NCBI GenBank assembly: GCA_963697485.1
Contig: CAVOOD010000007.1
Coordinates: forward strand, 190,611-254,610
Reading direction: 5' to 3'
DNA from: an uncultured beta proteobacterium
Lineage (GTDB): Bacteria; Pseudomonadota; Gammaproteobacteria; Burkholderiales; Casimicrobiaceae
Length of the DNA stretch: 64,000 bases
The notes below the pieces were generated by a model. That model was not told where the DNA came from. It made no database searches and saw only the letters and a program-made list of their open reading frames with translations. Made by a program: the position numbers and the translations under genes. Each line of letters starts with the position of its first letter. The stretch's first letter is position 1. Shown in pieces: positions 8,916 to 62,194 of this stretch.

Positions 8916-8931
8916 CCCGGCGTCCTCGCCG

Positions 8932-10784: not shown

Positions 10785-10820
10785 AACCCGATTGGCGCCA
10801 AGCTGGTCGGGTTTTTTATT
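10785..10820 (+). terminator. Intrinsic terminator or attenuator hairpin between ptsI and metX
   Basis: 7-bp stem aacccga/tcgggtt (10785-10791 and 10807-10813) with a 15-nt loop, followed by ttttatt. Confidence 0.5.
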
Positions 10821-10860
10821 GTCTCGAATATCGCCGCGCGGCGACAGCGCCGCTTTTGCC

Positions 10861-43273: not shown

Positions 43274-43385
43274 CGCTGTCTCCTGTTTGCCGCTCGAAAG
43301 TCGCGGTCCAGGACTGTAAACGCGCGGCGGCCGCGCAACGGGGTTAACCGGATGCGCCGAAACGTGCATGCGATAATCGCCGGTC

Positions 43386-44516: not shown

Positions 44517-44526
44517 AAGCGCTGCA

Positions 44527-44970
44527 ATGATTGTTTACGACCTGGTTTGCGCGCAGCAGCATCGGTTCGAGGGCTGGTTCGCCTCGACCGAGGATTACGC
44601 GCGCCAGCACGAGCAGACGATGATTCGTTGCCCGGTGTGCGACGACGCCGCGATCGAGCGCCGGCCTTCGGCCAACGTGCAGGTCGGACGCGCTGCGATG
44701 CCCGCAGACGAACGTCAAACTGAAACTCAAACTGAAACCGAAACGATCACCTCCGGCGAAGCCGAGGCGCTGAAGCTGATGCGGCGCCTGGTGGCCAACG
44801 CCGAGAACGTCGGACGCGCCTTCCCCGAGGAAGCGCGCAAGATCCACTACGACGAAGCGCCGAAGCGAGGCATTCGCGGCCAGGCGTCGCCCGAGGAAGC
44901 CGAATCGCTGCGCGACGAAGGCATCGACTTCATGTCGCTGCCCGGTTTCCTGACGCGCGATCTGAACTAG
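44527..44970 (+). CDS. DUF1178-family zinc-ribbon protein
   Basis: MIVYDLVCAQQHRFEGWFAS...IRCPVCDDAAIERRPS is typical of the family. Confidence 0.75.
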   Translation: MIVYDLVCAQQHRFEGWFASTEDYARQHEQTMIRCPVCDDAAIERRPSANVQVGRAAMPADERQTETQTETETITSGEAEALKLMRRLVANAENVGRAFPEEARKIHYDEAPKRGIRGQASPEEAESLRDEGIDFMSLPGFLTRDLN

Positions 44971-45053: not shown

Positions 45054-45129
45054 GGGTCGTTAGCTCAGTTGGTAGAGCAGCGGACTTTTAATCCGTTGGT
45101 CACTGGTTCGAGTCCAGTACGGCCTACCA
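45054..45129 (+). tRNA. tRNA-Lys (anticodon UUU)
   Basis: 76 nt, gggtcgttagctcagttggtagagc..., anticodon loop ct-TTT-aa, T-arm ggttcgagtcc, encoded CCA end. Confidence 0.93.
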
Positions 45130-45179
45130 GTAACATCAGTAGGTTGAGCTGGCTCTGCAGCGCGGGGAGCGCTCGCTGA

Positions 45180-45362
45180 TCAGCTGCTGCCCGCGACTCT
45201 GGCCCACTCGCCGGCCTGCACTCGAGCGATGCGGCGCGGGTTGCCCGAGGCGTCGGGCTTGAACACCAACGCTTCTCCCTCCCTGATATCAGCCACGTCC
45301 TGCCCGAACGCATCCAGAACATTGGTCTTGTGCGTCACGATGATCGTATTGGTCGCTGGCAT
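45180..45362 (-). pseudogene. C-terminal fragment of a histidine-phosphatase-family gene
   Basis: The 60-aa ORF NTIIVTHKTNVLDAFG...GEALVFKP resembles only the C-terminal third of such proteins. No N-terminal part is present between it and the next gene. Confidence 0.4.
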
Positions 45363-45457
45363 CGGCGGTGTCGAAGCCAGATCCGCAACGCTTCACCGTG
45401 GCCCTGACTGCCGCCTCCATCGCCCGCGATCCGCGAATGGGAGCGCGGGCGGTCCGT

Positions 45458-46620
45458 CTAGAACGTTCGTCGCATGAAGTAGGTGCTGGTGGCGCTGATG
45501 AGACCAATGACGAGCATATAGGTCGCGATCAGCCAGGGTTGATCGTTACCGCCGTGCAGCAACGTGGTCGCGATAAGCGGCGTAATCGAGCTGGAGACGA
45601 TCCCCGACACCTGATAGACGACAGAGATCCCGGAATAGCGCACGCGCGTATCGAACAACTCACAGAACAGCGCTGCCTCGGGACCGTATACGGGTGCGTA
45701 GATCACGCCGAGCGCGAGGACGATAGCCGCTCCTGCCAGAACTACGCCGCCGGAGTGCATCATCCAGAACATCGGGAACGCGGCGAGTCCGCAGGCGAGC
45801 GCGCCCCAGCCATAGACGGTGCGGCGCCCGAAGCGGTCCGACCATTTCGCCGCGACCGGTATGGTGAAGATCAGTACGAACGCCGCGGTGGAGATCGCCA
45901 CGAGAACGCTCGTTTTGTCGTAATGCAGCGACCCGACCAGATAGGCGATGGCGAACACCGCGTAGATGTTGAACACGACACCGTCGATCCAGCGCGCACC
46001 CCAGCCGAGCAGGACGTTGGTCTTGTACTCCCGGAAAATCTCACCGACCGGCACGTCGACTATTTTCTTGGCGTTCTTGATGCGGGCGAATTCCGGCGTT
46101 TCGAGAATCCTCAGCCGCACGAAGATTCCGACGGCCACGAGCACGATCGACAGGAGAAACGCGGATCGCCAGCCCCATGACATAAAGGCTTCGTCGGACA
46201 TCGAATAGGACAGCAAGGCGACGACGCCGGTGGCGAGGCACAGTCCGATCGCCAGGCCGACTTGCGGGAAGCAGGCGAAGAAGCCGCGCCGCTCGCGTGG
46301 TGCGTACTCGAACGCCATCAGGACGGCACCGCCCCATTCTTGCGGCCGATCTTGTCGCCGAAGTGTCCGAACAGGATGCCACCGACGGGGCGAGTCACGA
46401 AGCCCATCGCGTAGACCGTGTACGCGAGCATCGTCGCTACGAAAGCGTTATCGGCGGGAAAGAACAGCTTGTTGAAGACGAGTCCGGTGATGGTGCCGTA
46501 CAGAAAGAAGTCATACCACTCGACCGTCGTGCCGATCAGGCTCGCGATGATGACAAGCCTTCTGCTGCGCTCATCGACCTGGGGTACTCCCTGCGGCGGT
46601 GCTGATATTGCTGCTTCCAT
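45458..46620 (-). pseudogene. MFS metabolite:H+ symporter (MHS) family transporter with an internal deletion (junction near 46340)
   Basis: A strong SD gaggagga precedes the ATG at 46620. TVEWYDFFLYG...FGHFGDKIGRK is joined directly, out of frame, to EWGGAVLMAFEYAPRERRGFF. In family members these motifs are separated by roughly 50 residues. Confidence 0.8.
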
Positions 46621-46654
46621 GACTTCCTCCTCTGTTTGACCGGGCTTCCGGCCG

Positions 46655-47775
46655 TTATGCTCCGGCGGCGTTTGACGGATCACAAGCGGACCGCGACCCT
46701 ATGAAATTCTGTCCCCTCGGTCCATCGAGCGCGTCGCTGATCATCCGAAGTGATTCGCTTTCCGGCACGCCATAAGCTTCGAACCGCGTGCGCACGGCGA
46801 GCGCTTCAAGAAACGTCTGCAGATACACCGGCGCCTGCGCGAGCGGGCACGGGAACACTCGAGCGAGGATCCCGTCGCGCTCCGCACTGCAACCAATCGC
46901 GCGCTCGAGCACGAAAGGCAGGGTGAAGGAGCAGGCGATGCCGTGCGGCAAGCCGTAGCGCAGCGTCATTTCGTACGATATCGAATGCGCGAGCGCAGTC
47001 TTGGTGTTGGAAAATGCGAGTCCGGCTTGCAGCGCGGCGAGAGAAGTCGACGTACGCAAGCCGATGTTGTCCGGGTCTTCGACCAGACGCGGTAATGTAT
47101 CCATCATCAGCGTTGCGGACGCCACCGCCAGCGCGTCGGAAACCGGGTTGGCGTTCAGGTTCCAGATGGACTCCAGCGCATGAGACAGTGCGTCGAGGCC
47201 GCTTTGAACGGTCACGGCGTGAGGCAGGGTAATCGTGAGTTCAGGGTCGACGATCGCTCGTTCCGGCCACGTTTCCCGAAGGTGCAGCGAATACTTCCGG
47301 TTGATCGAACGATCCCAGACGGTCGCCCATGGCGTGACCTCGCTGCCGGTTCCGGCCGTCGTGGGGACGGTGATCAACGGTTTCACTTGCCCCGGCTCGA
47401 AGGCTTCGCCGCGTGCGAGCAAGCGCATGAGCTCGCGGAAACCGCCACTCGCCGGCGCAACCATCAGAACCTTGGCGGTGTCGAGCGCGCTACCGCCGCC
47501 GACCGCGACGATCAACTCGCAGGAAGGGTTCTGCTCCCAGAAACGGGCGTGCAGGCGTGCGAGATGCTCGACATCGGGATTGAGCTCGACGTCGGCAATG
47601 ACGCCGAAGCCAGCGCGGGGCCCAGTTGTCGCCGGATCCGATCGGTCAGGCCAAGCGCCGCCGCCTCGGGAAACGTCACGAGGACCGTCTTGCGCCCGCC
47701 GACGGCCTCCGGCAGCCGTTCCAGCGTGCCCAGCCCGAACAGCACGTCGACGGGGTTGTGATAGCGCCAGCTCAC
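46655..47775 (-). pseudogene. Iron-containing (group III) alcohol dehydrogenase, frame break near 47608
   Basis: MSWRYHNPVDVLFGLGTLERL...; AVGGGSALDTAK; VPTTAGTGSEVTPWATVWD; metal ligands in GLDALSHALES and LAHSISYEM. Confidence 0.85.
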
Positions 47776-47991
47776 GCCGATCAGGACCTGCGGAAGTCGA
47801 GTGCGCGCGCGCTGCAGGAGGCGCGCGATCGATTGCGCCTCCGGCCGTCCGCGATGCTGGGCACTCGACGAACCGAATGGGCTGCCCGCTGCGCCACATC
47901 TCCTCCGCCATGCCGACCGATGGACAGAGTATCGGTGCGGGTCTAGTATTCAGCCAATACATTTTCTCGCCAGAATCCATAGCTTTTACCA

Positions 47992-48966
47992 ATGCGACTG
48001 ACCCAGCTTCGTTCCTTCTATGCGGTCGCTCGCCACGGCGGCTTCACTGCGGGGGCCAAGGCGCTGCATATCAGCCAGCCGACGGTCACGACTCAGGTCC
48101 GCGCGCTTGAAGCGAACTATGGCGTCGAGCTTTTCGTGCGCCGTGGACGCAGCGTCATCCTGACCGACGTGGGCCACACTCTATTTACGATGGCGCAGCG
48201 CGTTTTTGCGCAAGAGGAGGAGGCGCTGAATTTTCTTCGCGAGACCGGCGAGTTGCGCACCGGGCGACTGCGAATAGGCGCCGTCGGACCGTTCCATGTG
48301 ATGGAGATGATTTCGGCGTTTCGCCGACGATATCCGAAAGTCGAAGTCTCGATCACGATCGGGAACTCGGAAGAGACGATGCGCGGCCTGCTGGCGTTCG
48401 AGACGGACGTTGCGGTGCTTGCACAGTACGCCAGTGAGCCTCTGTTGCACTCCGTACCCTATAGATCCCATCCTGTCGTGATCTTCGTGCGCAGAGACCA
48501 TCGCCTGGCTGGACGCGAGACCATCCGCATCGAGGAATTGGCCGATGAAGACCTGATCATGCGGGAACCAGGCTCTACGACGCGCAAGGCTTTGGAGGAT
48601 GCACTGCGCGCCGCGGGCGTGAAACCGCGACTTGCAATGGAAATCGGTAGCCGCGAAGCCGTGCGCGAAGCGGTGATCCGCGGGCTGGGCATTTCCGCAG
48701 TGTCGGAATTCGAATTCGTCGCGGATCCATGCCTGCACGCGATCAAAATCACCGGCGCGAAGGTCACGACACATGCCCATGTCGCCTGTTTGCAAGAGCG
48801 ACGGCAGGTACGCATCGTCAACGCGTTCTTTGACGTGATCGACGAAATCTTGAAACGCGGGAGAGATCGGGGGTTGCCGCGCCGGACGTCGGCGGGTACA
48901 ATTCCAGCGAAGGTAGCGCCACGTATTCGAGCGATTTCCGGCAAGCCTTCCATATCGGGTCGTTAG
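47992..48966 (+). CDS. LysR-family transcriptional regulator (divergent from the dehydrogenase-MFS pair)
   Basis: HTH MRLTQLRSFYAVARHGGFTAGAKALHISQPTVTTQVRALE. The last ~25 residues look like read-through, and the stop codon lies inside the tRNA-Lys(CUU) gene. Confidence 0.88.
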   Translation: MRLTQLRSFYAVARHGGFTAGAKALHISQPTVTTQVRALEANYGVELFVRRGRSVILTDVGHTLFTMAQRVFAQEEEALNFLRETGELRTGRLRIGAVGPFHVMEMISAFRRRYPKVEVSITIGNSEETMRGLLAFETDVAVLAQYASEPLLHSVPYRSHPVVIFVRRDHRLAGRETIRIEELADEDLIMREPGSTTRKALEDALRAAGVKPRLAMEIGSREAVREAVIRGLGISAVSEFEFVADPCLHAIKITGAKVTTHAHVACLQERRQVRIVNAFFDVIDEILKRGRDRGLPRRTSAGTIPAKVAPRIRAISGKPSISGR

Positions 48967-49032
48967 CTCAGCTGGTAGAGCAGCGGACTCTTAATCCGTT
49001 GGTCGTAGGTTCGATCCCTACACGGCCTACCA
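48957..49032 (+). tRNA. tRNA-Lys (anticodon CUU)
   Basis: 76 nt, gggtcgttagctcagctggtagagc..., anticodon loop ct-CTT-aa, T-arm ggttcgatccc, encoded CCA. Confidence 0.93.
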
Positions 49033-49039
49033 TTCAAAT

Positions 49040-49078
49040 GCGGTTAGTGACGACAACGGTCACTAACCGCTTTGTTTT
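49040..49078 (+). terminator. Intrinsic terminator of tRNA-Lys(CUU)
   Basis: Perfect 12-bp stem gcggttagtgac/gtcactaaccgc, 7-nt loop, then tttgtttt. Confidence 0.85.
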
Positions 49079-49123
49079 GGGGTTACCCAAGTTTCACCGG
49101 TTACGGATCCGACCGTTAATCAT

Positions 49124-50419
49124 TTGGGAGCAGCGGTGGCGGAAAGCAATCCCCCCAGCCTGTACCGCATAACGACGGACGCCGACAAGGCTTTGCAAGC
49201 GCGCGACTATCACACGGCCGTCCGCCTCTACACGGAGGCGTTAACGCGGACTTCCGTTCAAAGCTACCAGCGCGCTGCCATACTCAGCAATCTGGGTCTT
49301 GCCTGGCAGAACCTCAACCAAGGCGAAAAAGCGACGGCCTGCTTCGAAGACGCTGTCGCGGCGAATCCGAATCTCGCATCGGCACGGATTAGCCTGGGGA
49401 ACACCTATGCGCTGCGCGGGTTGCATGCGGAAGCGCTGCAGCAGTATGACCGAGCCCTGGTACTCGATCCTGCGAGCGCCGTCACTCATACCAACCGGGC
49501 GCTGAGCCTGGAGGCCCTGGGGCGGATCGAGGAAGCCTGGAAGGAATCGGAATGGCGCTACTCTCTTCCCACGGCAACATCGTTCTATCCCCATCGCTAC
49601 GCGAAGCCCAGGTGGAAGGGTGAGCCGTTACGCGGCCAGACTCTCCTTGTGCATCGGGAGCAGGGCCTGGGCGACGTCATTCAATATCTTCGCTTTCTGC
49701 CGCTCCTCGAGCGCTTCGATGCATCGGTCAAATTCGAGTGTCCGCAGCCGCTTGTGCAGCTGATCTCGCCAACGCTCCGACTCGAAGTGATTCCGGCAGA
49801 AGCGCGGCCGGTTCCGGAAGACCTTTTCGATTGTTACATCCCTTTGCTCAGCTTGCCGCATGCGCTCAAATTCAGCGCCATAGACCTTCCGAAGACTTGT
49901 CCCTACTTGTCACGCAGGCTGACAGGAGAAGCGAAACAGTCCCCCGAGCGGGAAACTTTGAAGATCGGCTTCGTCTGGTCCGGCAGCGCGTTCAATCGAA
50001 CGCGCAACGCGGAGCTCTCGGATTTCCTGCCTCTGGTCCGTTTGAATGCGGCGCTCGTTTCTCTGCAAAAGGAAGTCAGTGATCCGGAACGCCGCCAGAT
50101 GTTGGTACACGGCATCGAGAACCCTGGCGTTGCGTTTCGAAACTTTGGCGACACACGCGATGCGATCGTGGCGCTGGACGTCGTCGTCGCGGTCGATACG
50201 GCAGTCGCTCACCTGGCGGGAGCCTTGGGAAAGCGCACGTGGCTGCTTCTGAATGAACCTGCGGCCGTTCGATGGATGATGAATCGCGCCGACAGTCCAT
50301 GGTATCCGACGATGCGCATCCGCCGCAGGCGGGAGAGTCAATCGTGGGCGGACATGATCACCGGCGTGGCGAGCGAGATCGAGAAAGAGACGGCGCTCGC
50401 GTCTCCGCCCCGTGATTAG
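49124..50419 (+). CDS. TPR-repeat protein fused to a glycosyltransferase family 9 (heptosyltransferase)-like domain
   Basis: N-terminal TPRs (AILSNLGLAWQNLNQGEKA..., LGNTYALRGLHAEAL...). The C-terminal part has REQGLGDVIQYLRFLP and VDTAVAHLAGALGKRTWLLL, typical of GT9-like domains. GC content is visibly lower than in the flanks. Confidence 0.7.
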   Translation: MGAAVAESNPPSLYRITTDADKALQARDYHTAVRLYTEALTRTSVQSYQRAAILSNLGLAWQNLNQGEKATACFEDAVAANPNLASARISLGNTYALRGLHAEALQQYDRALVLDPASAVTHTNRALSLEALGRIEEAWKESEWRYSLPTATSFYPHRYAKPRWKGEPLRGQTLLVHREQGLGDVIQYLRFLPLLERFDASVKFECPQPLVQLISPTLRLEVIPAEARPVPEDLFDCYIPLLSLPHALKFSAIDLPKTCPYLSRRLTGEAKQSPERETLKIGFVWSGSAFNRTRNAELSDFLPLVRLNAALVSLQKEVSDPERRQMLVHGIENPGVAFRNFGDTRDAIVALDVVVAVDTAVAHLAGALGKRTWLLLNEPAAVRWMMNRADSPWYPTMRIRRRRESQSWADMITGVASEIEKETALASPPRD

Positions 50420-50438
50420 GAAGTGTACGGACGACGGG

Positions 50439-50485
50439 GCGGACTCCTAGTCCGTTGGTCGTGGTTCGATCCCTACACGCCTGCC
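50439..50485 (+). pseudogene. Decayed 3' half of a tRNA-Lys(CUU)-like gene
   Basis: gcggactcctagtccgttggtcgtggttcgatccctacacgcctgcc aligns with the anticodon stem to acceptor 3' strand of the tRNA at 48957, with a few mismatches or indels. It is followed by a degenerate copy of the same terminator (ggttag..ctaaccgc..ttttgcttttt). Confidence 0.75.
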
Positions 50486-50680
50486 GATCCGAAGGGTTAG
50501 CCTAACCGCGAGCCATTTTGCTTTTTGGACCGCGACAAAGACGTGTCAACCCGCCTTCGTGAGCGCTCGCTCGAAGGCCAACTTCCGCACGATGCCCCCG
50601 GCGGTTAGAATAATGGCCGGGGAAGCATCGGGACGGCAACGGCGAGCAGGCCGCCATGCGTAAATCGAGGGAGACCTAGC

Positions 50681-52297
50681 ATGACAGGGCTAAAGCGATT
50701 GGGCGGGGTTACATTTCATCACGCGGGGGCGTTCTGGTTCGGCGTGGTGGCGGTGACGGCCGGCGTCGTTGCGCATATCCCGATGTACCTGATGGGCGAG
50801 AACATCGGGTACCGCCTGGTCGGCATGCCGATGGACATGCCGATGATCATCGGCATGGTCGCGATCGTCGTCGGCCTGATCGTCGAGCTTGTACGGGCTC
50901 TATCCGCGCTCGGCAGAGGATACGGCGCGCGCCGTATCCCGCATCCGCGTCAGCGCTCTCGACGACGCGCCGCTCAACCTGACTCACGTCGGGCTGCTAC
51001 TTGCGATGGCGCTGGCCGTCATCATCGACATCATGAAGCCGACGGCGCTTGCGTTCGTGATGCCGGGCATGTCTATGGAATACGGATTGAAGTCGCCGCT
51101 CAATCCCGGCGGCAGCATTCCGGTGGCGTATGTCGCGCTCTCGGGAATCACGGGCACCGTTCTTGGGTCATTCCTCTGGGGCTGGTTGGGGGACCGGATC
51201 GGGCGGCGCGCTTCGATCCTGTACGCCGGCATCGCTTTCATTGCCACGTCGATCTGCGGCGCGATGCCCGACTTCTCCTGGAATTTGGTGATGTGCTTCA
51301 TGATGGGGTTGGCCGTCGGCGGCATGCTGCCGATCTGCTACGCGCTGCTTGCCGAAGCGATTCCCGCGCGTCACCGGGGCTGGCTGATGATACTGATCGG
51401 CGCCGACATCGCTGGCGGCTACATCATTACCAGCTGGCTTGCCGCGTCACTGGTGCCGACGTACAGCTGGCGGATTCTGTGGCTCATCGGCATGCCGACG
51501 GGCGTGGTATTCATCCTGCTCAACCGCTGGATTCCCGAGTCGCCGCGGTTTCTGCTCGCCGTCGGGCGCGAGGACGAGGCGCGGGCCGTGATGGCGCGCT
51601 ACGGCGCCCGCGTCGTCGAGGGCAGCGCAGTCCGAGACGGCGGTCGAAGCCAAGGTCCACAGTCGCTGGAGCGAGCTGATCAGCCCCGGATTCCTGCGGC
51701 CGACGCTCGTCGTCGGTTGTCTTGCGCTGGGCTCGGGTCTGGTCTTGTTCGGCTTCAACCTGTGGATTCCGACCAACCTGCGCAAGCTGGGCTTTACCGA
51801 GGCCGACTCGATTCTGCGCAACGCGGCGCTGATCGGCTTTCCGCTGACATTTCGTCGTCGCGTGGATGTACGGTTTCTGGAGCAGCCGAAACACGATCAT
51901 CGTCCTGTCGTCATTGACGGCCGCGTCGCTTTTCGGCTTTGTCGTTGCCGGAGACGCCGTCGTGCAGCATCGCTGGCTGCTTTATGTGCTGCTCGTGGTG
52001 CCGATCTGGGGAATCAGCTCGGTCGTCGCGGTGTTGTCGGTCTACAGCTCGGAGATCTATCCGACGCGCATCCGATCGCACGGGACGGGGTTTGCCGCCG
52101 GCGCGAGCAAGGCGGGCGGCGTCGCGATCATCGCGCTGGTGGTCTTCGGAATCGCTGCGCCATCGATCTCGACGGTCGCCCTCATGGGAGCCATCCCGAT
52201 GGCGCTCGCCGTGCTGCTCGCGGTGCGTTACGGCGTGGAGACGCGCAGGCGCAGTCTGGAAGAGATCACTGCGGAAGAGCTTGCGCGCGCGGGCTGA
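50681..52297 (+). pseudogene. MFS transporter, about 3 frame breaks (near 50885, 51640, 51855)
   Basis: WGWLGDRIGRR, GGMLPICYALLAEAIPARHRGW, WRILWLIGMPTG, PESPRFL and SSEIYPTRIRSHGTGFAAGASKAGG are spread over four ORF-track pieces. Confidence 0.8.
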
Positions 52298-53271
52298 TCA
52301 CCTTCTCGCCAAGCGCGCCGGGATCGGCCGCGGGCAGCCGGCAATAATGCTGAAGATGCTGCCAGGAAACATTCCACGAATATCTGCGCCACTCGTCGCG
52401 CAGGAAGTTCGCGTACTGCTCGACGAGCGAGTCGACGCGCTCATCGTGGGTCGACTGCGGCCCGAGGACCTGAAAGGGTGCTCCGAACTCCATGACGAAC
52501 GACCCGCGCGGCGTAAATCGATAGGCGAGCAGGCACGACGTGAGCGCCAGTCTTGAGCGCGAGCTCGGCGAACCCGATGGCGAGTCGGCGCCGGCGCCCG
52601 AAGAACTCCACCGAACGCGAATTGTCGAGGTTCTGGCGGGCATCGGGCAGGTTGAAGACCAGGCCGCCTCGGCTGAGCCGCTGCTTGGCTGCGTGCATCT
52701 GCCGCGCGAGCTCGAAACGCTTCGTGGCCGGCGTCGCGAAACCCCTCTGCTCGAGCTGATCGTTGGTGAGGCCGAGCTCGAGGCCGTCGTGTCCGCGATG
52801 GCGGAGGTACGGTTGGAACAGGCGGCAGAACTGGCCGTGGACCGGCACGACGATGAGCCCCGCTCCGTCTTGCCGGCCTCGATCGAAGTGTTCCCACCCG
52901 ATGACGCGTGTCAGTCGCGCTACCAGCTCGGGCGGCCCGTTCGACAGACTCTGGAACCATCCGGCGAACCAGAGCCGGCCCAGCAGGCTCAGGCCGACGA
53001 ATTGGCGCCGCTCGGCGAGTGGCAAGCCGAACAGCGTCGCGAAACGATGAAGGAGATCGGCGTCTGCGGGCCAAACGTCCCTCTGCACCGGCGTCTGGCT
53101 ACAAAGGAACTTCAGCCAGCGCGCCTCCATGCGATGCGCGTTCTCGTCGCCTGCGCCGCGCCTCACGGCCTCGTCGACGAGCCGCTTGGCGCGGTCGAAC
53201 CGCTGCCGATTGAGCTCGGAGCTGAGATTCCGCCTGAGGTGACGCTCGATCGGTCTGATGAGGTAAATCAC
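52266..53271 (-). pseudogene. LpxL/HtrB-family (lipid A biosynthesis-type) acyltransferase, frame break near 52535
   Basis: Overall similarity to the Lip_A_acyltrans family (GLIVVPVHGQF... region, LSRGGLVFNLPD, AIGFAELALKTGAHVVPA). The C-terminus continues in ORF 52266..52643. The family assignment was made by eye. Confidence 0.55.
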
Positions 53272-53293
53272 GAGCGATTCATTCCGATCGGCG

Positions 53294-54622
53294 TTACTTG
53301 AGCGGAATGTCGAGCGGGCGTACGCGCTCGGTCGCCGCCCGATGCGCCGCGGGACTGTCGGCCATCGAGTCGAAGTTGCCGGAGCGATCGGTCAGCAAGG
53401 ACGCGGCGTACATCAGTGCCTGCGCCTGGGTGCTGCTGAATCCCATCGCCTCGCGAGCTTTCGCATGCCCGGCGTCGCTCGCCTGGTAGTAGGGCAGCGC
53501 GAGCGATCGGCTGAGCTCCAACCTAGCCTGCACCTGCGACGAGAAGATGGATCGATGCTCGTCGCGCCTGGCGCGCTGGCGAAAACACCGGTCGATCGTG
53601 TGTGCCGCCGCGTAGGCCGAGTACATGCCGAATACGACGCCCACCGAGAAGATAGGGTCGACGAAGCCCGCCGCGTCGCCGAGCAGGAAGAATCCCGGCC
53701 CGGCAACCCGGTTGGACCGGTACGAGTAGTTCCGTACGAGCCGCACCGACCCTTCGCAGAACGTCGCGTCGGCCAGCAGCCGCTGCAGCAGCGGCAACGC
53801 GCGGCATTGCCTCAAAAACCAGGCCTCCCACGACTCGCCGCTTGCTTTGCTTTCGCTCGCCCACGCCTTGGGGATGACGAGGCCGATGCTCGTCGACTCC
53901 CGCAGCATGATGTGCCAGAGCCAGGCCCATCCGTCGCCCTGCGGCAGCGCGCTGACGTACGTTGTCGGCGGCACTTCGCGCACCGACTGCGCCGGATAGA
54001 TCTGGCCGTCGGCCGCCAGATAGCTCGAGTTCGCGAAATAGCCCCACACGCTCATGAAGCGGAAGCCCTCGTCGAAAACGCGCAGTCCCAACTGCCTGCC
54101 GAGGACGCCGGTCTGCCCGCTGGCATCGACGACGTACCGGCAGCGAATCCGCGACGCGCTGCTCTCGCCGACCGGCCGATAGCTGACCGAGACTTCGCTC
54201 TCGTCGTCCTCCGCCCGCGAGAGATCCGCCCCCAGGACCGCGATCTCCTCGCCGACCCAGGCGCCGGACGCGCGCGCCCGCTCGAACAGAATCTGATCGA
54301 AGCGGTCGCGCTCGACATGCAGCGCGGGCCGCGTGTATCCGAAGTCGCCGAACGAAAGGCGGCGCATCTCGCCGTTCCAGTCGACGCTGCCCCCGGCCTT
54401 CCGCAGGAAACCTTCACCGGCGATCGCGTCGCTCACCCCGGCGGCGTCGCAGTACTTCCAGACATCGGGCAGCAGGCTCTCCCCCACTTGATACCGAGGG
54501 TGCTTCTGCCGCTCGAACAAGGCAACGGAGTAGCCCTTGTCGGTCAGGTAGGTCGCAGCGAGACTGCCCGCCGGCCCGCCGCCGATCACCACCACGTCGC
54601 ACGATTCGGGAACCGTGCTCAC
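53294..54622 (-). CDS. FAD-dependent halogenase-like oxidoreductase
   Basis: Rossmann VVVIGGGPAGSLAA; a WxWxI-type motif GWAWLWHIM; FVDPIFSVGV matching the halogenase Fx.Px.Sx.G motif. The GTG start overlaps the carrier-protein stop (GTGA). Confidence 0.65.
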   Translation of the reverse strand: MSTVPESCDVVVIGGGPAGSLAATYLTDKGYSVALFERQKHPRYQVGESLLPDVWKYCDAAGVSDAIAGEGFLRKAGGSVDWNGEMRRLSFGDFGYTRPALHVERDRFDQILFERARASGAWVGEEIAVLGADLSRAEDDESEVSVSYRPVGESSASRIRCRYVVDASGQTGVLGRQLGLRVFDEGFRFMSVWGYFANSSYLAADGQIYPAQSVREVPPTTYVSALPQGDGWAWLWHIMLRESTSIGLVIPKAWASESKASGESWEAWFLRQCRALPLLQRLLADATFCEGSVRLVRNYSYRSNRVAGPGFFLLGDAAGFVDPIFSVGVVFGMYSAYAAAHTIDRCFRQRARRDEHRSIFSSQVQARLELSRSLALPYYQASDAGHAKAREAMGFSSTQAQALMYAASLLTDRSGNFDSMADSPAAHRAATERVRPLDIPLK

Positions 54623-54882
54623 GGGGGGAGTTTCTTCACGATCAGATTCCTGACCGCCCGCAGCGTCTGGAAATTTTCGATGAGGACTTCGTCGGGCTCG
54701 ATCGAAACCGCGAACTTCTCTTCGACGAACGCGATGAGCTTGAAGATGCCCAGCGAATCGACCAAGCCTTCGGCGATGATGTCGGTATCCGGCGCGACGA
54801 CGATCGCGCCTTCCCGCCCCGCTTCTTCCTGTGTGAAGAACCGTGCGAGCGTGTCGAAGATTTGCTGGTCGGTATAGATCAT
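54619..54882 (-). CDS. Acyl/peptidyl carrier protein, DltC-like
   Basis: 87 aa. EGLVDSLGIFKLIAFVEEKF contains the phosphopantetheine-Ser motif in a DltC-like context. The ATG overlaps the upstream stop (ATGA). Confidence 0.8.
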   Translation of the reverse strand: MIYTDQQIFDTLARFFTQEEAGREGAIVVAPDTDIIAEGLVDSLGIFKLIAFVEEKFAVSIEPDEVLIENFQTLRAVRNLIVKKLPP

Positions 54883-55863
54883 GGCGCTTTGAAGATCTCC
54901 GTGTTGGGGATGGCAGGCGGCGAACTCGTACCACTCTCCAACGCCGGATTCGAGGTACGCGAGCTGCGTTCCGGCGAGAGGGCCGGAGATCGCTTCGCCC
55001 ATTTCGTTCCACACCGACCCGGTCTGTTCGTCGTACACCCCGCGCGCTTCGGAGTAGCCGAACACCAGGATGCGATCGCCGACCCGGCGATGAAAGGCCA
55101 GCGCCTGCAAGGTCCCGGGCCGGCAGCGCAGGACGATCTCCGCACCGCCGAGCGAGTCGTTCAGGACCGGCCCGATCCGCGCCAACGCCTGCAGCGGATA
55201 CGCCCGGGCCTTCGCTCGCGTTCTCGACGCCGAGGACGAGCGTGTTGTGCGGGAGTCGCTCGTCGAGGGGCCTGACGAGCGTGGCGAGAAACCCAGGCGA
55301 GATGCCGGGCGAACCGGGTGAAAGTGGCTCCCGCGCCCCTCGCGCAACGCCTGCTCGGCGTACAGAACCATTGTCGTCGGATGCATCGCGAGCCACTCGC
55401 TCCACAGACACTGCGAGAGCGGGAGGCGCTTGAGGGCCGCCCCTCGCATCGCGCCGGCCAGCGCAACGCCGGTGAACGGCGACCAAAGGCTATCGGTCGA
55501 GCTGGTCTTCCAGGAGCATCGTGCCGTTGTACTGCCCTCGCAGACGAAAGAGCGAGACGCTGCCCTTCGACCTCCGCCCGAAAGGCCGACGCGCTGCTGC
55601 ACATCGCGCAGAGCGTCACGACCACGGGCCGATCGTCGAAGGCGAGGTTCGCGACGTGAGGGTGCTCTCATGATCCACCACGGCAGCGCCCAGGCGCGGC
55701 GGCCCAGATAGAGCCCGAGGACCGGGTCGTCGTCGCGAAGGTGGTCGTACACGTCGGTCCAGACCGGGTCGTTCAGCGGCTGAGGCGCCCTTGTCGCGAG
55801 TTCTTTCGCTTCAAACAGGTGCGCTTGCGGCAGTTCGCAGTGGGTGTCGACGGTTTCAACCAT
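54879..55863 (-). pseudogene. DUF3179-domain protein, at least 4 frame breaks
   Basis: PVLGLYLGRRAWALPWWIM, VVTLCAMCSSASAF (other frame), DSLWSPFTGVALAGAMRGAALKRLP, WSEWLAMHPTTMVL and the C-terminus HP-NTEIFKAP stop (an extra c in a cccc run). Confidence 0.65.
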
Positions 55864-57425
55864 GGGGAAGCTCCTCGTGCAGCCGCAGTCGGTCGACTTT
55901 GCCGGTGCTGCCGCGCGGAAGCGACCCGCGCACCGCGATCGACAGCGGAATCATATACGCAGGGAGACGTTCGGCGCAAAACGCACGAAGCTTGCCGGCA
56001 TCCAACGCGCGCCCGGCCTTGGCGACCGCCGCGGCGCGTATCACGTGGCCGCTCTCCTCGTCGGGTATGGCGATGGCTGCCGCCTCCGCTACGTCCGGAT
56101 GCTGGTGCAAAACACTTTCGATTTCACCAAGCTCGATGCGGTAGCCGCGGCTTTTTACCATTCCGTCCCGGCGGCCGAGAAGATGAAGCAGCCCGGCGCC
56201 ATCCTCGCGCACGAGGTCTCCGGTCCGATACCAGAGGGCGCCCTCGCTCCGTTCGCCGCGAGAGACGAGGGCATGTGCGGTGGCGTCGGGCATCGCCTGG
56301 TAGCCGGTCATCACGCTCGGGCCGCTGACGTAGAGCTCGCCCGTTTCGCCTGGCTCGCACACCGACCCCGCGTCGTTCACGACGAGCAGCTTGCTGTTCG
56401 CGCACGCTGTGCCGATCGGCACGGGCGCTGTCTGCTCTGGCGGCAGCGCGTCGACTGCGTAGGCGGTGCAGACGTTGGTCTCGGTCGGCCCGTACCAGTT
56501 CCAGTAGCGCGCGCCGGGGATTTGCTCGCGCAGGCGGCGCAGATGCGCGACCGGGAAGACTTCGCCGGCGAAAATGATCTGGCGCAGCTGCGACCAGTCG
56601 TGGCGCTCGAGTCCGCCCGAGAGCGCGAGTCGCGCGAGCAGCGAAGGTACCGAGTACCAGACGGTGATCCGCTGCGCTGCGATCCAGTCCGCGAGATTGC
56701 GTGGGAAGACGTTGAGGCCCGGCGGCACCAGTGCAACGCAGGCGCCCGCCTTGCAACTCGCGAAGAGGTCGAACACCGACAGATCGAAGTGCAGCGGTGC
56801 GTGGCTCGACACGACGTCGGTCGGGGCGAGCGCTGTGGCCTCGGCCGCCCAATCGACGAACGAGAGCGCGGCGCGATGGCTGAGCACGACACCTTTTGGC
56901 TGTCCGGTCGAGCCCGACGTGTAGAGGATGTACGCCGTGCACGAAGGATCGCGCTCTTCCCGACCGGCGCTCTTGTCCGGCACCGGAACACGCGAGGGGT
57001 TCGCCCTTTCGAAGCCAAACTCCACGTCGACCGGCCGCGGCGCCGCGCGAGCGATGCCGACGAAGGCCGGCGCGGACGCGAGCGCGGGAGCGAGCAGCGG
57101 CCACCACTTCGGCGTGGAGAAGATACCGCAAAGGTCGCCGTTCTCGACGATACGCGCGACTCGCTTGACAGGCGACGCGACGTCGAGCGGCACGTACGCG
57201 GCCCCGGCCCGGAGCACGCCCCACATGGCGACGATCGCGTGGAGCGACTTGTCCAGGTAGAGTCCGACGCGATTTCCGGGCCCCGCGCCTTGTGCGACGA
57301 GCTCGATCGGCGAGGCGGGCGGAGGACTCGTCCAGCTCGCGATAGCTGATCGACTTCGCCCCGTCGACGACCGCCGTCCGGTCCGGATACCTGGCCGCGC
57401 TTTGGATCAGCAGATCGTCGAGCAT
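55856..57425 (-). pseudogene. Stand-alone amino-acid adenylation (AMP-binding) enzyme, DltA/NRPS A-domain-like, one frame break near 57305
   Basis: A-domain core motifs are present: LYTSGSTGQPKGV, FDLSVFDLF, NWYGPTETNV, YRTGDLV, GRRDGMVKSRGYRIELGEIE and PRGSTGKVDR. Confidence 0.85.
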
Positions 57426-57743
57426 CGTCGGATGGGTCAGAGATCCCCCCGCGGCCGGCACCTTCGCTGATCGGACCTCATCGCACGATCAAGCGACGCA
57501 TTTGGCGCAAAATACGTGCAATTGCGCGTAAATCGCGCCGCGGATTCCGAGCTTCGCCTCATAGCCTCATTGGCCGCTTTGTCGATGATGGGCCGCTAGC
57601 TTATCCTAACCATGGTCCACCATGTCGGATGTGGTCCTACGAGGAAATCAGTTCTTATCTGATGGTCGCCAAGTCCGCTAATCACCAGACTGGCTGGAGT
57701 CCGACGGCCGTAATAGCAGCTTAACTGTTAGGGAGTTAAACCC

Positions 57744-58775
57744 ATGCGGTACCTGATAATCGCGCTTGCGATCCTCCTTGCCTCCGCGCTTCCTGCTCGC
57801 GCGCAGTTCAGCATCGATTTCAACGCCCCGGGCGTCAGTATCGGTGTCAACATGCCCGTGTATCCGCAGCTCGTTCTCATACCGGGCTACCCGGTCTATT
57901 ACGACCCCCAGGTGAATTCGAACTACTTCTTCTACGACGGCCTTTACTGGGTCTACTGGGGAGACAACTGGTACACGAGCGAGTGGTACAACGGCCCATG
58001 GCAGCTGGTCGCGCCTGAGTATGTGCCCCAGTTCCTGCTGCTCGTTCCCGTGCGCTACTACCGTTCTCCGCCGAGTTATTTCCTAAGCTGGGGTCGCGAT
58101 GCGCCGCCGCACTGGGGTGAACATTGGGGCGGCAGTTGGTCACAGCGTCGCGCCGGATGGGACAGGTGGGATCGGCGGTCGGTCGCCGCCGCGCCTCTGC
58201 CGGTTTACCAACGGCAATATTCCGGCAGTCGCTATCCTCGCGCCGCCGAGCAGCAGCAAGTGATTCGCACGCAGAATTATCGTTATCAGCCACGCGATGC
58301 CGAAGTGACCCAACACTTCCGGCAGCGAGCCGTCCAAGGGCAGCCACGAGGGCAGCAGCAGGTCCAACAACAGAATCAGCAACAGCTCCAGCCACAGGGC
58401 AATGCCGCCCGCGCCCGCGTGCAGACGCAACAGCCTGTGCAGCAGGGCGCGGCGCCGCAGGTTGAACAACTGAAGATGAATCGACAGCGTCAGCAGCAAC
58501 AGGTGCAGCAACAGCAACAGGTTCAGCAGCAACAGCAACAGGGGCGTCAAAACGGTCCGCAGGAAAAGGCGCGCGTCAATGCAGGCCCGCCGCAGGCCCA
58601 GGGTCCCGCGCCCAGGGGCGCGCCCAGGGAAACGAAGGCCGCTGCGCAAGGTCCGGGGCCGCAGGGCGGGGGCAGGGCAGGACCGCAGGAAGCCAAGGGC
58701 GGATCGCAAGACAAGGGAAACGAGAAAGGGGCGCGGGGCGGACAGGTCAAGGGAGACGAAAAGAAGAAGGAGTGA
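57744..58775 (+). CDS. Secreted protein with a Trp/Tyr-rich N-domain and a Gln-rich, then Gly/Lys-rich, low-complexity tail
   Basis: Signal peptide ending ARA-QF, then YFFYDGLYWVYWGDNWYTSEWYNGPWQLV (reminiscent of YXWGXW-type repeats). Long Q runs follow (QQQVQQQQQVQQQQQQ). Confidence 0.6.
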   Translation: MRYLIIALAILLASALPARAQFSIDFNAPGVSIGVNMPVYPQLVLIPGYPVYYDPQVNSNYFFYDGLYWVYWGDNWYTSEWYNGPWQLVAPEYVPQFLLLVPVRYYRSPPSYFLSWGRDAPPHWGEHWGGSWSQRRAGWDRWDRRSVAAAPLPVYQRQYSGSRYPRAAEQQQVIRTQNYRYQPRDAEVTQHFRQRAVQGQPRGQQQVQQQNQQQLQPQGNAARARVQTQQPVQQGAAPQVEQLKMNRQRQQQQVQQQQQVQQQQQQGRQNGPQEKARVNAGPPQAQGPAPRGAPRETKAAAQGPGPQGGGRAGPQEAKGGSQDKGNEKGARGGQVKGDEKKKE

Positions 58776-58816
58776 CGCCGTGAGCCGACATGCGGTTCTC
58801 GACTGAGGAGGTAAAA

Positions 58817-59131
58817 ATGAGCGCTACCGGATCCGGTCGCAACCATGCCCCGAGGGCCAAGGATGTCCGCGACCAGCTATCGCAAGTCGAATCGATGCTC
58901 GGTCAAGCGGCCAGGGAAACCGGGGAAAAGGCGAGTAGCTTGTTCTCCCAGGTGGAGGCGAGGCTGCGCTCGGCCACCGACGCGGTGCAGAGCCTGCAGG
59001 AGGATGCGATCGGTCGCGCCCGAGCCGCCGGGCGGGTTGCCGATGACTATGTCAGTGACAATCCGTGGCAGATGATCGGTGTCGCCGCCGCCATCGGTTT
59101 TCTGGCCGGCGCGCTGCTGAGTCGTCGCTGA
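58817..59131 (+). CDS. DUF883 (ElaB/YqjD-like) membrane-anchored stress protein
   Basis: SD gaggagg precedes the ATG at 58817. A helical N-part is followed by the C-terminal anchor DNPWQMIGVAAAIGFLAGALLSRR. Confidence 0.8.
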   Translation: MSATGSGRNHAPRAKDVRDQLSQVESMLGQAARETGEKASSLFSQVEARLRSATDAVQSLQEDAIGRARAAGRVADDYVSDNPWQMIGVAAAIGFLAGALLSRR

Positions 59132-59215
59132 GATGCGCGTCGATCAAACCTGTCCCCGGCGCGGCTCGGCATCCCGACCCGCGCTGGTCAGTCTGGGCAC
59201 TCGAGGGGATCCTTC

Positions 59216-59389
59216 ATGCTGAAATGGGCTCTGATCTTTTTTCTGATTTCGCTTGTCGCCGGCTTCTTCGGCTTTACCGGCGCTGCAGCAGACTTCAGGG
59301 GCATCGCCAAGATCCTGTTCTTCATCGCGATTGCGATATTTCTCATCGTCCTGATCTTCGGCGTGTTCCTGGGCACGCTGGTGTTCTGA
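59216..59389 (+). CDS. DUF1328 (UPF0391) small membrane protein, 57 aa; not in the ORF track
   Basis: Own translation: [57 protein letters not shown], which matches the family pattern. Confidence 0.75.
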
Positions 59390-59478
59390 TTCACGGCGAC
59401 GCCGTCTGAACTTCGGGCAGACGGCGCGGCCCCTTAGGCGTCGGCAGCCGGCGCCACCTGAAGGAATCGGAGCCTCAT

Positions 59479-59979
59479 ATGTTCAAATCACTGCTTGGGC
59501 TCGTCATTGCTGTCGTCCTGGCTGATGGCGCCCTGGCCCAGCCGGCCAATACCCCCGAGCAGGAGGCAAGAACGGTCGGTCCGTATCTGTACCTGGCCGA
59601 TTCGGATGGCAACAAGGTTCTGCTAAGTACGCAATTCTGGCGCAACGATCCGAAATACGACGACCGCGCATTCCACCGCTTTCTGGATGTCATGGAGGCC
59701 CTCGAGAAGCGCGGATTCCGCAAGAACGACAAGGCCGTGATCGACTGGGACAAGCCCGAGCCGGTCGTTCGCTGCTACATCTATCTCGAGGACCTGCAGA
59801 CGGCGAAGAAGGCGAAAGGCGCCGTCGTCAGCGATTCCCGCCTGTGGTGCGCAGACAACGGCGCGTCCGAACACGAAGTAAGGCCATCCGATACGCCGAA
59901 GCACGTCGACGAAGTCATGAAGTATTTCGACGAATATTTCGCGCGGGCGAAGGCCAAGGTGCACAAGAAAAGCGCCTAG
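59479..59979 (+). CDS. Secreted hypothetical protein
   Basis: Signal peptide [20 protein letters not shown], and the ORF is intact. I recognised no family. Confidence 0.5.
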
Positions 59980-60019
59980 GGTAGGACCTACGGCCTCGGC
60001 GGTATCCCGTACTGCCACT

Positions 60020-60145
60020 GCTCGCGGCGTTGCGAATCCCGAGCCAAACGCGCTGATCGGCGAAATGGTGATAGCTGGCGAATTGCTCAATCGGTCCAAT
60101 CGCAACGAGAACGATGACCGCGATGGCGATGAGCGCTATCGGCAA
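60020..60145 (-). pseudogene. N-terminal fragment of a ceramidase-like membrane-protein gene (truncated)
   Basis: A TTG-start peptide [37 protein letters not shown] resembles the N-terminus (YHxFADxR..GIPN) of bacterial alkaline-ceramidase-like proteins. Similarity stops abruptly near 60020. Confidence 0.3.
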
Positions 60146-60198: not shown

Positions 60199-61264
60199 CT
60201 AGAGCTTGCTCGCGTAGTCCTTCTGCACCTTCTTGATGCGCTCGTGCGAGCCCAGGAACGCGTGCTTCGACATGTCGGCGGAGTACTTGCTCGCCGGCGG
60301 ATGCTTGCCGACCGCTTCGGCCAGCGCGCGGATGTGATGCGGCCCGGCGCCGCAGCACACGCCGAGATAGCGGATGTCCAGGCGCCAGCGCCTCGCGGCC
60401 GAATTCGGCGATCTCGAAGCGATTGCAGGTGAACGGGTCGAGCGCGACCGGGAACGGCCGGCTGACCCTTCGTCGTAGTGCCAGTGCGCATCGCGCAGCG
60501 ACTGGAACGACGGCTCGCGCTCGCTGGTGCGATACGGAACCGGCAGCGCCGCGATGTGCGTCTTGACCGCGGCGCGGATCTCGCGCAGCAGCGGCATCAT
60601 CGTCGCCGGGCCGCGGATGCAGTTGAGGCCGACGACGTCGGCGCCGGCGTCGGCCAGCCGCTTGCACGCGTCGACGACGCTCCAGTTCTCGCGCGTCACG
60701 TCGGCCTGGTGCATCGCCAGCGTGATCACCGCCGTCTGCCCGGCGCGCTTGACCACGTCGAGCGCGATCAGCGCTTCCTGCGCATAGGAGAACGTCTCGC
60801 CGATGATGAAATCGACGCCGGCGTCGACCGCCCAGCCGACCTGCTCCTCGAACATCGCGCGCACCGCCTTGTGCGACGCCGCGTCGGCCGGATCGTAGAC
60901 GTTGGTGTTGCAGATGTCGCCGGCGAAGAGCGCGCCGGTTTCCGCGCGCCACGGTCTTGGCGATCTCGAGCGCGCGCCGGTTGATCGGCTCGAGGTCCTT
61001 CTCGCGGCCGATGATGCGCAGCTTCTCGCGATGCGCGTAGTAGGTGAGCGCTTCGACGACGTCGGATCCGGCGTGCACGAAGTCGCGGTGCAGCTGCGCG
61101 ACGACTTCGGGGTGCTCGAGCACCACCTCGGGGACGAAGGCGCCGGCCTGCAGATAGCCGCGCCGTTCGAGCTCGAACACGTAGCCCTCGGCGCAGATCA
61201 CCGGGCCCTGATCGAGACGTTCCAGCAGCGAGTTCGATGGGCGTTGCGTTGCGGTCGCGGTCAT
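60199..61264 (-). pseudogene. Betaine/homocysteine S-methyltransferase-family enzyme, about 3 frame breaks (near 60945, 60470, 60385)
   Basis: [63 protein letters not shown] and [18 protein letters not shown] (zinc-binding Cys pair). Confidence 0.8.
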
Positions 61265-61520
61265 GGCGTCTGCCTTGGGAGTGGAGCGCGCGACTATCGC
61301 ACCTTTGCCGGCCGCGACCAGTCGCCAGCCGACGCCGATTGTCGCCGGTGCGACATCGGCGGCTCCGACCCGGGCCTGGCGCGTCGCCGCTCGCGCCGGG
61401 GCAGCCGGCGTCCGCACCATGGACCAACCCGGGTCGCATCTGGAACACTTGCGGCCCGGCGCGCCGACTATGCTGGCGGCGAGCGCCCGCGGCACGCGCG
61501 CAAGCGCTCGGAGGATGGCG

Positions 61521-62185: not shown

Positions 62186-62194
62186 TGCGGTCCG

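Follow-up and report, generated by a model that had tools for sequence, protein, structure and literature searches.

A mosaic variable region at a conserved tandem tRNA-Lys pair in an uncultured Casimicrobiaceae genome

Introduction

Chromosomal hotspots of horizontal transfer reportedly lie between conserved core genes, and such a hotspot is one of three described systems with which we compare the locus studied here, a tandem pair of tRNA-Lys genes and the 15 kb of DNA that follows the first of them in the genome of an uncultured member of the Casimicrobiaceae. The other two are tied to integration. The tRNA-gene islands of P4-type tyrosine integrases use tRNA genes (tDNAs) as hotspots, for example the asparagine tDNAs in Klebsiella (PMC4891358). 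Cis-mobilizable elements (CIMEs) are defined by attachment (att) sites that have been kept and genes for integration and transfer that have been lost, and they are linked to tandem accretion (PMC5704250, citing Pavlovic 2004 and Bellanger 2011).

The stretch analysed, hereafter the window, comprises 64,000 nucleotides (contig CAVOOD010000007.1 of assembly GCA_963697485.1, positions 190611–254610). A preliminary description, made from the sequence letters, had read window positions 45130–60145 as a single old, eroded island anchored at tRNA-Lys(UUU) and ending in a truncated gene. Comparison with relatives shows that this interval consists of three different things and is not one 15-kb island. 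The accessory tract is its left third (45130–50487, ~5.4 kb), and the remainder is neighbouring DNA common to close relatives. The reading that we favour, at a probability of roughly 0.7, is a mosaic at a conserved tandem tRNA-Lys pair, composed of a replaced spacer between the two tRNA genes, a small islet at tRNA-Lys(CUU), a native flank, and a deletion at the right edge. No new kind of element or mechanism is revealed, and the locus is a routine tRNA-linked variable region.

Materials and methods

The genome under study is labelled G000 and its relatives G0xx, with contigs after the colon, so that the window is G000:C7:190611–254610 and the flagged interval C7:235740–250755. The G000 assembly measures 3.58 Mb in 8 contigs, with 66.1% GC and an estimated completeness of only 61%. 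The anatomy of the locus was compared across 13 genomes of the genus. tRNAs were called with ARAGORN and Rfam, domains with Pfam and NCBIfam, and synteny with blastn and tblastn. Copies of tRNA ends were sought by local alignment, with the last 45 nt of each tRNA as query. Gene calling from GC3 suffered from too much noise in G000 and gave way to Pfam/NCBIfam matches and tblastn with orthologs. All-against-all tblastx of the spacers and downstream stretches was noisy in high-GC DNA, and its clear results alone were kept.

Results and discussion

An att-bounded islet at tRNA-Lys(CUU)

Exactly two tRNAs were called, tRNA-Lys(UUU) at 45054–45129 and tRNA-Lys(CUU) at 48957–49032. The second of them is followed by an islet (49033–50487) with the features below.

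48957–49032, plus strand: tRNA-Lys(CUU), intact, attL of the islet (ARAGORN, Rfam)
49040–49079, plus strand: terminator hairpin, "type I", with a 12-bp stem; common to G017, with 90% identity over 48939–49079
49124–50419, plus strand: gene for a TPR + GT9-like glycosyltransferase (TPR-GT9), sole cargo of the islet (Pfam TPR families; weak Glyco_transf_9 match)
50439–50487, plus strand: decayed direct copy of the 3′ half of tRNA-Lys(CUU), ~49 nt from anticodon stem to acceptor end, attR
50493–50530, plus strand: degenerate "type II" terminator, the original terminator of the tRNA, then native flank (alignment with G011:C2)

The scan for tRNA copies gave one strong extra match, at 50439–50487. 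It lies directly after the TPR-GT9 stop codon in direct orientation, is unique in the 3.58-Mb genome, and aligns with the tRNA at 93% identity over 42 nt; it differs by three mismatches and a single indel, and its acceptor end is changed. The decayed tRNA copy that the preliminary description had placed beside TPR-GT9 is thus real. The copy and the terminator and flank that follow it are homologous to those of G011:C2, the terminator and flank with 88.5% identity (blastn alignment of 218 nt). In G011:C2, a perfect 43-nt copy (tRNA positions 34–76) is located 1.6 kb downstream of the tRNA and is followed by the terminator, the flank and the same major facilitator superfamily (MFS) gene. Since the flank of the window copy matches G011:C2 while the live tRNA has a different terminator, the ancestral order appears to have been tRNA-Lys(CUU), type II terminator and MFS gene. 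Site-specific integration of an element would then have replaced the part of tRNA-Lys(CUU) between the anticodon stem and the CCA end: the 3′ half and the terminator now seen at the live gene would stem from the element, and the old ones would have been moved ~1.45 kb downstream and have decayed there.

Recombination genes are missing from the region, as had been noted before. A six-frame hidden Markov model (HMM) search of the whole genome, read at E<=10 for Phage_integrase (PF00589), placed no match inside the interval; rve (PF00665) and Resolvase (PF00239) were likewise without a match in C7:235740–250755. The region has no inverted repeats of the insertion sequence (IS) type, only 19–31-nt pairs at chance level. 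The islet is therefore a recombinase-less remnant of site-specific integration, comparable to a decayed CIME.

Among the marks of tRNA islands, a position at the 3′ end of a tRNA gene is shared by the segment starting at 45130 (UUU) and the islet (CUU), and a recombinase is absent from both. A distal direct repeat is present for 49033–50487 alone; it is lacking for 45130–48956 and for 45130–60145 as a whole. Sporadic presence among close relatives is seen for the islet. Like the P4-type islands, the islet is inserted at a tRNA 3′ half, with the tRNA regenerated and a distal direct repeat in the 43–50 nt range; its distribution is sporadic, this tRNA is a recurrent target in the genus, and a P4-type integrase is present in one relative. 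In composition, the islet lies at the 3rd GC and the 97th tetranucleotide percentile, and the whole interval at about the 11th and 92nd. Unlike those islands, the window has neither an integrase nor a detectable fragment of one, the islet holds one cargo gene in 1.45 kb, and its distal repeat has decayed. It agrees with a CIME in its lack of integration genes, TPR-GT9 being its sole gene and recombinase domains being absent; its attL is the intact tRNA and its attR a decayed copy. The tandem att arrays of relatives (three sites in G008; in G011, a 1.6-kb islet flanked by a perfect 43-nt pair) resemble CIME accretion. It differs in that no conjugation or mobilisation genes occur in the versions seen, although no search was aimed at conjugation genes, and descent from integrative and conjugative or integrative and mobilizable elements would be conjectural; moreover, the attR of the window is mutated and may no longer recombine, and no matching integrase was found in the islet-bearing genomes.

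The tRNA half could also have arisen by local duplication or slippage in a window that is ancestral throughout, the differences being indels of the relatives themselves. The absence of a recombinase from both the window and G017 is compatible with this explanation, as are the wide occurrence of the TPR-GT9 family in the bacterial family, with several paralogs per genome, and the ordinary chromosomal setting in G014 of the LysR/dehydrogenase/transporter module that fills the window spacer. We nevertheless consider it improbable. The copy spans anticodon stem to acceptor end, as integrase att sites in tRNAs do, and such copies recur downstream of the tRNA in six other genomes, in two of them beside an integrase or a fragment of one. 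The sequence after the copy matches G011 while the live tRNA has a different terminator, the GC content of the islet falls in the 3rd percentile, and close TPR-GT9 orthologs are rare (G017, G090 and G006).

Proteins of the TPR + GT9-like type at 31–40% identity to 49124–50419 were found in 85 of 151 genomes of the family, G000 included, often with two to four per genome. They lie mostly in open frames of 600–900 aa and form a large paralogous expansion.

Use of tRNA-Lys(CUU) in relatives

Direct copies of 45–49 nt of tRNA-Lys(CUU) are located downstream of the gene in G015 (a perfect 46 nt), G008 (three copies), G013 and G004; G013 has two copies, one direct and one inverted. In G008 the C-terminal fragment of an integrase abuts a tRNA copy (PF00589, 52.6 bits), and G013 carries an rve transposase and what reads in its sequence as a toxin–antitoxin-like pair. 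An integrase beside a TPR-GT9 gene was found in G090, a Casimicrobiaceae metagenome-assembled genome (MAG; locus L032, DASXQW010000201.1, G090:C201, 4001–6861). There, a TPR-GT9 ortholog at 68% identity ends in a 49-nt tRNA-Lys(CUU) fragment (5263–5311), and a P4-type integrase, complete with its Arm-DNA-bind_3, Phage_int_M and Phage_integrase domains, starts 162 nt further. ARAGORN calls this fragment an odd tRNA with its anticodon at position 32.

The window shares with G017 the element-type terminator (90% identity), an intact TPR-GT9 gene (74% aa identity, one frame) and the MFS gene that follows. The integration at tRNA-Lys(CUU) would thus be common to both genomes, and G017 still holds 21.6 kb between terminator and TPR-GT9, none of which is present in G000. 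The break of the window relative to G017 falls within 49080–49111 and not at the att site, and it is therefore more parsimonious to assume that the window lineage lost DNA than that G017 underwent a second site-specific integration. On the simplest view, the window islet would be a deletion derivative that kept one cargo gene and no recombinase; the 21.6 kb may also be a gain in G017.

The very small islets at tRNA-Lys(CUU), such as that of TPR-GT9 and the 1.6-kb one of G011, could alternatively be minimal, single-gene, att-bounded cassettes without a recombinase that are still mobilised in trans when another element, resident in the cell or passing through it, supplies a P4-type integrase. 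If so, tRNA-Lys(CUU) would act somewhat like an integron platform for trans-mobile cassettes in the genus. This is very unlikely. No homolog of the G090 P4-type integrase was found anywhere in G000 (E<=1e-3), nor in G011, G015, G008, G004 or G017 (E<=1e-10), and the lack of a resident homolog in G000 and these five islet-bearing relatives argues against ongoing trans-mobilisation.

Several islets of relatives were noted in their own right. In G008 (locus L022, G008:C4:1565000–1583000), three direct partial copies of tRNA-Lys(CUU) at 3007–12028 represent tandem accretion, and the cargo comprises the integrase fragment, a DUF6880 protein, a HigB/HigA-like pair, a nucleotidyltransferase and a cNMP-binding pyridine-nucleotide oxidoreductase. 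The block of DUF6880 and toxin–antitoxin genes is common to G008 and G013, with up to 99% identity (tblastx). In G011:C2 (locus L014, 10275–11990), the 1.6-kb islet between tRNA-Lys(CUU) and the perfect 43-nt 3′ copy has 56% GC and a single open reading frame (ORF) with a Crp-type helix-turn-helix (HTH) domain; no integrase is nearby, and the islet looks recent.

The spacer between the two tRNA-Lys genes

The DNA between the two tRNA genes (45130–48956) and the gene to its left contain the following features.

44527–44970, plus strand: DUF1178 gene, conserved left flank (Pfam PF06676, E=6.8e-46); adjoins tRNA-Lys(UUU) in all genus genomes examined
45054–45129, plus strand: tRNA-Lys(UUU) (ARAGORN, Rfam); blastn homology with relatives ends at its CCA end
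45180–45392, minus strand: C-terminal fragment, ~70 codons, of a histidine-phosphatase-like gene (PRK06193-type; weak NCBIfam NF004842 match, E=2e-4, profile positions 146–201 of 209)
45458–46698, minus strand: MHS-family metabolite/H+ symporter in two frames, 45458–46318 and 46318–46698 (Pfam MFS_1, Sugar_tr; TIGR00883)
46655–47992, minus strand: iron-containing alcohol dehydrogenase (Fe-ADH), phosphonate-cluster type (TIGR03405 Phn_Fe-ADH, 428 bits, cut-off 423.7; Pfam Fe-ADH)
47992–48966, plus strand: LysR regulator, aminoethylphosphonate-catabolism-associated type (TIGR03339, 346.9 bits, cut-off 341.1)

DUF1178, tRNA-Lys(UUU) and tRNA-Lys(CUU) are kept in 13 of 13 genus genomes, while the spacer differs in length as follows and falls into at least five unrelated contents; in an outgroup family, the two tRNA-Lys genes lie 115 bp apart.

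G002: 100 bp
G004: 803 bp
G011, G015: ~1.9 kb
G003, G006, G008, G013: ~2.9 kb
G005, G014: 5–6 kb
G007: 11.7 kb
G017: 13,990 bp

Homology of the window to G017, G011 (both copies of its locus) and G002 stops exactly at 45129 (blastn); with four close relatives it sets in again at most 18 nt upstream of 48957. The content in between matches no relative's spacer and is unique to the window at this site, a sporadic presence that is not accompanied by a distal tRNA repeat. The same conserved genes thus flank differing content in all 13 genomes, and the inter-tRNA spacer is a hotspot of gene gain and loss. Like the hotspots between core genes, it lies between two universally conserved genes, here tRNAs, and holds species-specific genes (0.1–14 kb) and no mobility genes. 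It is unlike them in that the flanking "core genes" are two near-identical tRNA-Lys genes and that at least one occupant, LysR/Fe-ADH/MHS, is a relocated ordinary chromosomal module, not obviously foreign DNA.

An intact module of this kind is found in G014:C47 beside petAB, sspA and tRNA-Thr, with normal GC and in an ordinary chromosomal context, and its genes allow the lesions in the window to be judged. The window MHS transporter lacks ~47–54 codons relative to the intact 434-aa ortholog in G014:C47, where the extra ~54 codons are in frame; this internal deletion is real. The LysR gene has lost its last ~4 codons and stop, and ~30 further codons are read into tRNA-Lys(CUU), with an overlap of 10 nt; the G014 ortholog has 297 aa, of which the alignment covers residues 1–293 only. 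The N-terminal ~130 codons of the Fe-ADH ORF lie outside the model match. Of 60 other genus genomes, only 3 have homologs of the phosphatase fragment (52–55% identity), within open frames of 148–274 aa that lie at different sites. The preliminary description of this segment was borne out for the module with its internally deleted transporter and for the lysR tail over the 5′ end of tRNA-Lys(CUU); its phosphatase fragment has a weak NCBIfam match.

In G011, G015 and G017, ~1.9 kb lies directly upstream of tRNA-Lys(CUU); the pieces of G011 and G017 are homologous to each other and consist of a DUF885 gene. No DUF885 gene is present in the window spacer, and no ortholog was found in G000. The DUF885 gene of the closest relatives would accordingly have been replaced in the window lineage by the 3.4-kb LysR/Fe-ADH/MHS module. 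The incoming module may have truncated an earlier occupant, of which the phosphatase gene tail is left, and have lost the lysR end at the junction; the internal deletion of the MHS transporter would have come later than its arrival.

The proposed native flank

From 50488 onward, the window contains three groups of genes.

50681–52297, plus strand: MFS transporter (MFSb), first gene of the native flank (Pfam), with three frame shifts relative to the intact 545-aa G017 ortholog
52441–57406, minus strand: carrier-protein operon, comprising LpxL-like acyltransferase, flavin-halogenase-like enzyme, DUF3179 + PP-binding carrier, and amino-acid adenylation enzyme (Pfam, NCBIfam)
57744–59979, plus strand: stress-type cluster, comprising Q-rich protein, DUF883, DUF1328 and a hypothetical protein (Pfam)

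The adenylation enzyme matches TIGR01733 above its cut-off. In G017, the order from MFSb to the hypothetical protein is kept beside the BHMT-like gene and the ABC transporter genes that bound the interval on the right, with no match for DUF1328. In G011:C7, the same order stands beside BHMT without the MFS gene. G016 has the order from carrier protein to BHMT, its contig ending inside the operon, and the same pieces are found on short contigs of G002, G012 and G015, the last with an intact MFSb of 537 aa. Overall, the operon is conserved and collinear in G017, G011, G016, G015, G012 and G002, and the stress cluster in G017, G011, G016 and G002. The segment 50488–59979 is therefore resident in the species group, and the MFS gene, the carrier-protein operon and the stress cluster would be its native flank.

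These results decide against the preliminary description of the whole interval (45130–60145) as one old eroded island at tRNA-Lys(UUU) with its end at 60020–60145 or 57678–57712, which we now regard as most unlikely. Homology with all relatives does break exactly at the 3′ end of tRNA-Lys(UUU), the right edge holds two gene fragments, the GC content is 2.4 points under the genome mean and ~6–7 under both flanks, and neither the operon nor the BHMT locus is found at this site in the more distant members of the genus: the four-gene operon lies elsewhere in G003, G014 and G006 and was undetected in G013 and G008, and BHMT is on other contigs in G003 and G014, without a match in G006 and undetected at the nucleotide level in G013 and G008. 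However, the interior tRNA-Lys(CUU) is conserved beside tRNA-Lys(UUU) in every genome and so is not island cargo, and 50488–59979 is collinear with BHMT in G017, G011:C7 and G016, which hold extra genes at the scar of the window. The composition of the operon is typical, and the synteny largely refutes a single island. The notion of an eroded tRNA-associated island survives for 45130–50487, which has seen several events and lacks a recombinase, and fails for 50488–59979. The att scar sits at tRNA-Lys(CUU), so that tRNA-Lys(UUU) is not the anchor. Alignment to relatives, which had been proposed as a check, gave the same gene order with a similar GC content (63.5% in the equivalent block of G017) for two thirds of the interval, an outcome that the description itself had named as refuting it. 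The boundaries that had been given, DUF1178 and tRNA-Lys(UUU) on the left and the BHMT-like and ABC genes from 60199 on the right, were confirmed (ARAGORN, Pfam), as were the carrier-protein operon, DUF883 and DUF1328 (Pfam, NCBIfam).

A candidate 3′ copy of tRNA-Lys(UUU) at 57678–57712 was rejected; its local alignment score of 22 is at background level and equals that of random places in the window.

Some variation within the operon was observed. The DUF3179 part (54885–55834, minus strand) of the 414-codon carrier ORF has a paralog at G000:C3:720038–720982 with 85% nt identity and 10 single-base gaps. The window, G011:C2, G015 and G006 have a DUF3179 gene between those for adenylation and carrier protein; G017, G016, G002, G003, G012, G014 and G011:C7 have none at this place. 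DUF3179 and carrier are separate genes in different frames that overlap by one base in G015, so an indel artefact may account for the fused frame of the window. At two further loci (L061 in G015:C157 and L062 in G012:C152), the LpxL-like acyltransferase gene is tandemly duplicated, with ~62–68% identity to the single copy of the window.

The right edge

Three features mark the transition to the BHMT locus.

60020–60145, minus strand: N-terminal fragment of a membrane-protein gene, ~42 codons, truncated towards 59979 (translation and blast); also in G011:C2
60173–60199, plus strand: last 9 codons of a GlxA/AraC-type regulator gene, deletion scar; the translation equals the C-terminus of a 349-aa G017 protein
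60199–61291, minus strand: BHMT-like homocysteine S-methyltransferase, right flank (Pfam PF02574); frame shift near 60946

The 362-aa BHMT ortholog of G017 matches the window in two frames (tblastn), and ABC transporter genes follow. The fragment at 60020–60145, at most putatively ceramidase-like, has no Pfam or NCBIfam match and is shared by G011:C2 only. In G017 and G011:C7, the gap between the hypothetical protein and BHMT holds the GlxA/AraC-type regulator, to which G016 adds an ORF that reads as Rieske oxygenase-like. The 349-aa regulator of G017 has DJ-1_PfpI and HTH_18 domains, and the gene is intact in G017, G011:C7 and G016. In the window, the gap is only 220 bp, and the regulator is reduced to its last 27 nt. 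The right edge is thus a deletion scar of 1–2.2 kb between genes that are neighbours in relatives too, and not an island boundary; the gene fragment that had been taken for the end of the island exists, on the minus strand, and marks this scar. The deletion would have removed the GlxA-type regulator and, relative to G016, the Rieske oxygenase gene.

Composition

The GC content of the interval, 63.7%, is below the genome mean (66.1%), as had been described, yet this is no lower than the 11th percentile of 15-kb windows; its tetranucleotide deviation is at the ~92nd percentile. The parts differ as follows.

TPR-GT9 islet: GC 60.0%, GC 3rd percentile, tetranucleotide 97th percentile
Stress cluster: GC 61.3%, GC 5th percentile, tetranucleotide 95th percentile
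Inter-tRNA segment: GC 62.3%, GC 9th percentile, tetranucleotide 75th percentile
Carrier-protein operon: GC 67.0%, GC 58th percentile, tetranucleotide 82nd percentile

The islet and the stress cluster alone stand out. Both flanks of the interval are unusually GC-rich (~70–71%, 97th–99th percentile), and its visual GC contrast arises partly from them.

Frame breaks and assembly quality

Compared with the intact G017 proteins (tblastn), frame switches occur in the left-flank transporter, BHMT, both ABC genes, MFSb (three), the acyltransferase and the adenylation gene, at ~1 per 1.5 kb inside and outside the interval (43184–44530, 50681–52297, 60199–61291, 61263–63200). A rate like that of the flanks, together with 61% completeness in 8 contigs, suggests indel errors of a long-read assembly. 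The frame shifts of MFSb, a broken-looking gene that the preliminary description had not listed, are probably such assembly indels rather than erosion, and the evidence of decay is limited to the larger lesions: the deletion in the transporter, the gene tails and the damaged end of lysR.

The same error rate, which extends into the flanks, and the low completeness raise the question of whether part of the mosaic, especially the spacer content, is a chimeric join or collapse in an error-rich long-read MAG. The two tRNA genes share 46 of their first 48 nt and could mislead an assembler, and contig C7 of G011 has a duplicated and inverted copy of the locus. We hold this to be very improbable: the window lies ~190 kb inside a 588-kb contig, the LysR/Fe-ADH/MHS module is single-copy in G000, its ends are truncated genes and not clean repeats, and three relatives have the remainder of the locus in the same order.

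The second whole-locus copy in G011 (loci L015 and L016, G011:C7:43000–72906) carries an inverted duplicate of the left-flank transporter, DUF1178 and tRNA region, and is probably a strain mixture or a hairpin-like assembly artefact.

Weighing of the proposed history

The following observations weigh against the mosaic as reconstructed here. No att repeat of the tRNA-Lys(UUU) 3′ end was found that would explain the arrival of the spacer content. G017 has no displaced copy after TPR-GT9, and a shared integration would require an extra loss of ~190 nt there; its 21.6 kb holds no integrase, appears from its sequence to be metabolic and transport DNA, and could be a later gain and not the original element. 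The tRNA fragment of G090 is inverted relative to TPR-GT9 and offers no simple path to the layout of the window. None of the relatives examined offered an empty site in which BHMT comes immediately after DUF1178 and the tRNA-Lys genes, and the distant members carry unrelated DNA after the tRNA pair (in G013, G008 and G007 it shows no synteny with the window contig), so that the native flank may itself have arrived at the tRNA in the ancestor of the species group. Finally, the assembly, 61% complete in 8 contigs, has many frame breaks, and the junctions are known from it alone. The anatomy, the repeats, the synteny and the lack of recombinase domains are direct observations; the direction of each event, deletion or gain, the action of an integrase in the window lineage and the way in which the module entered the spacer are what we infer from them.

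Implications

The annotation of the region is corrected to an accessory tract of ~5.4 kb rather than 15 kb. This assigns the carrier-protein operon and the stress cluster to the resident genes of the species group and not to island cargo, and most of the "broken" genes in the region should not be read as decay. For this uncultured Casimicrobiaceae genus, the tandem tRNA-Lys(UUU)/tRNA-Lys(CUU) locus is a recurrent hotspot of integration and gene flux with att repeats of 43–50 nt, and it is a useful landmark for finding islands in these MAGs.

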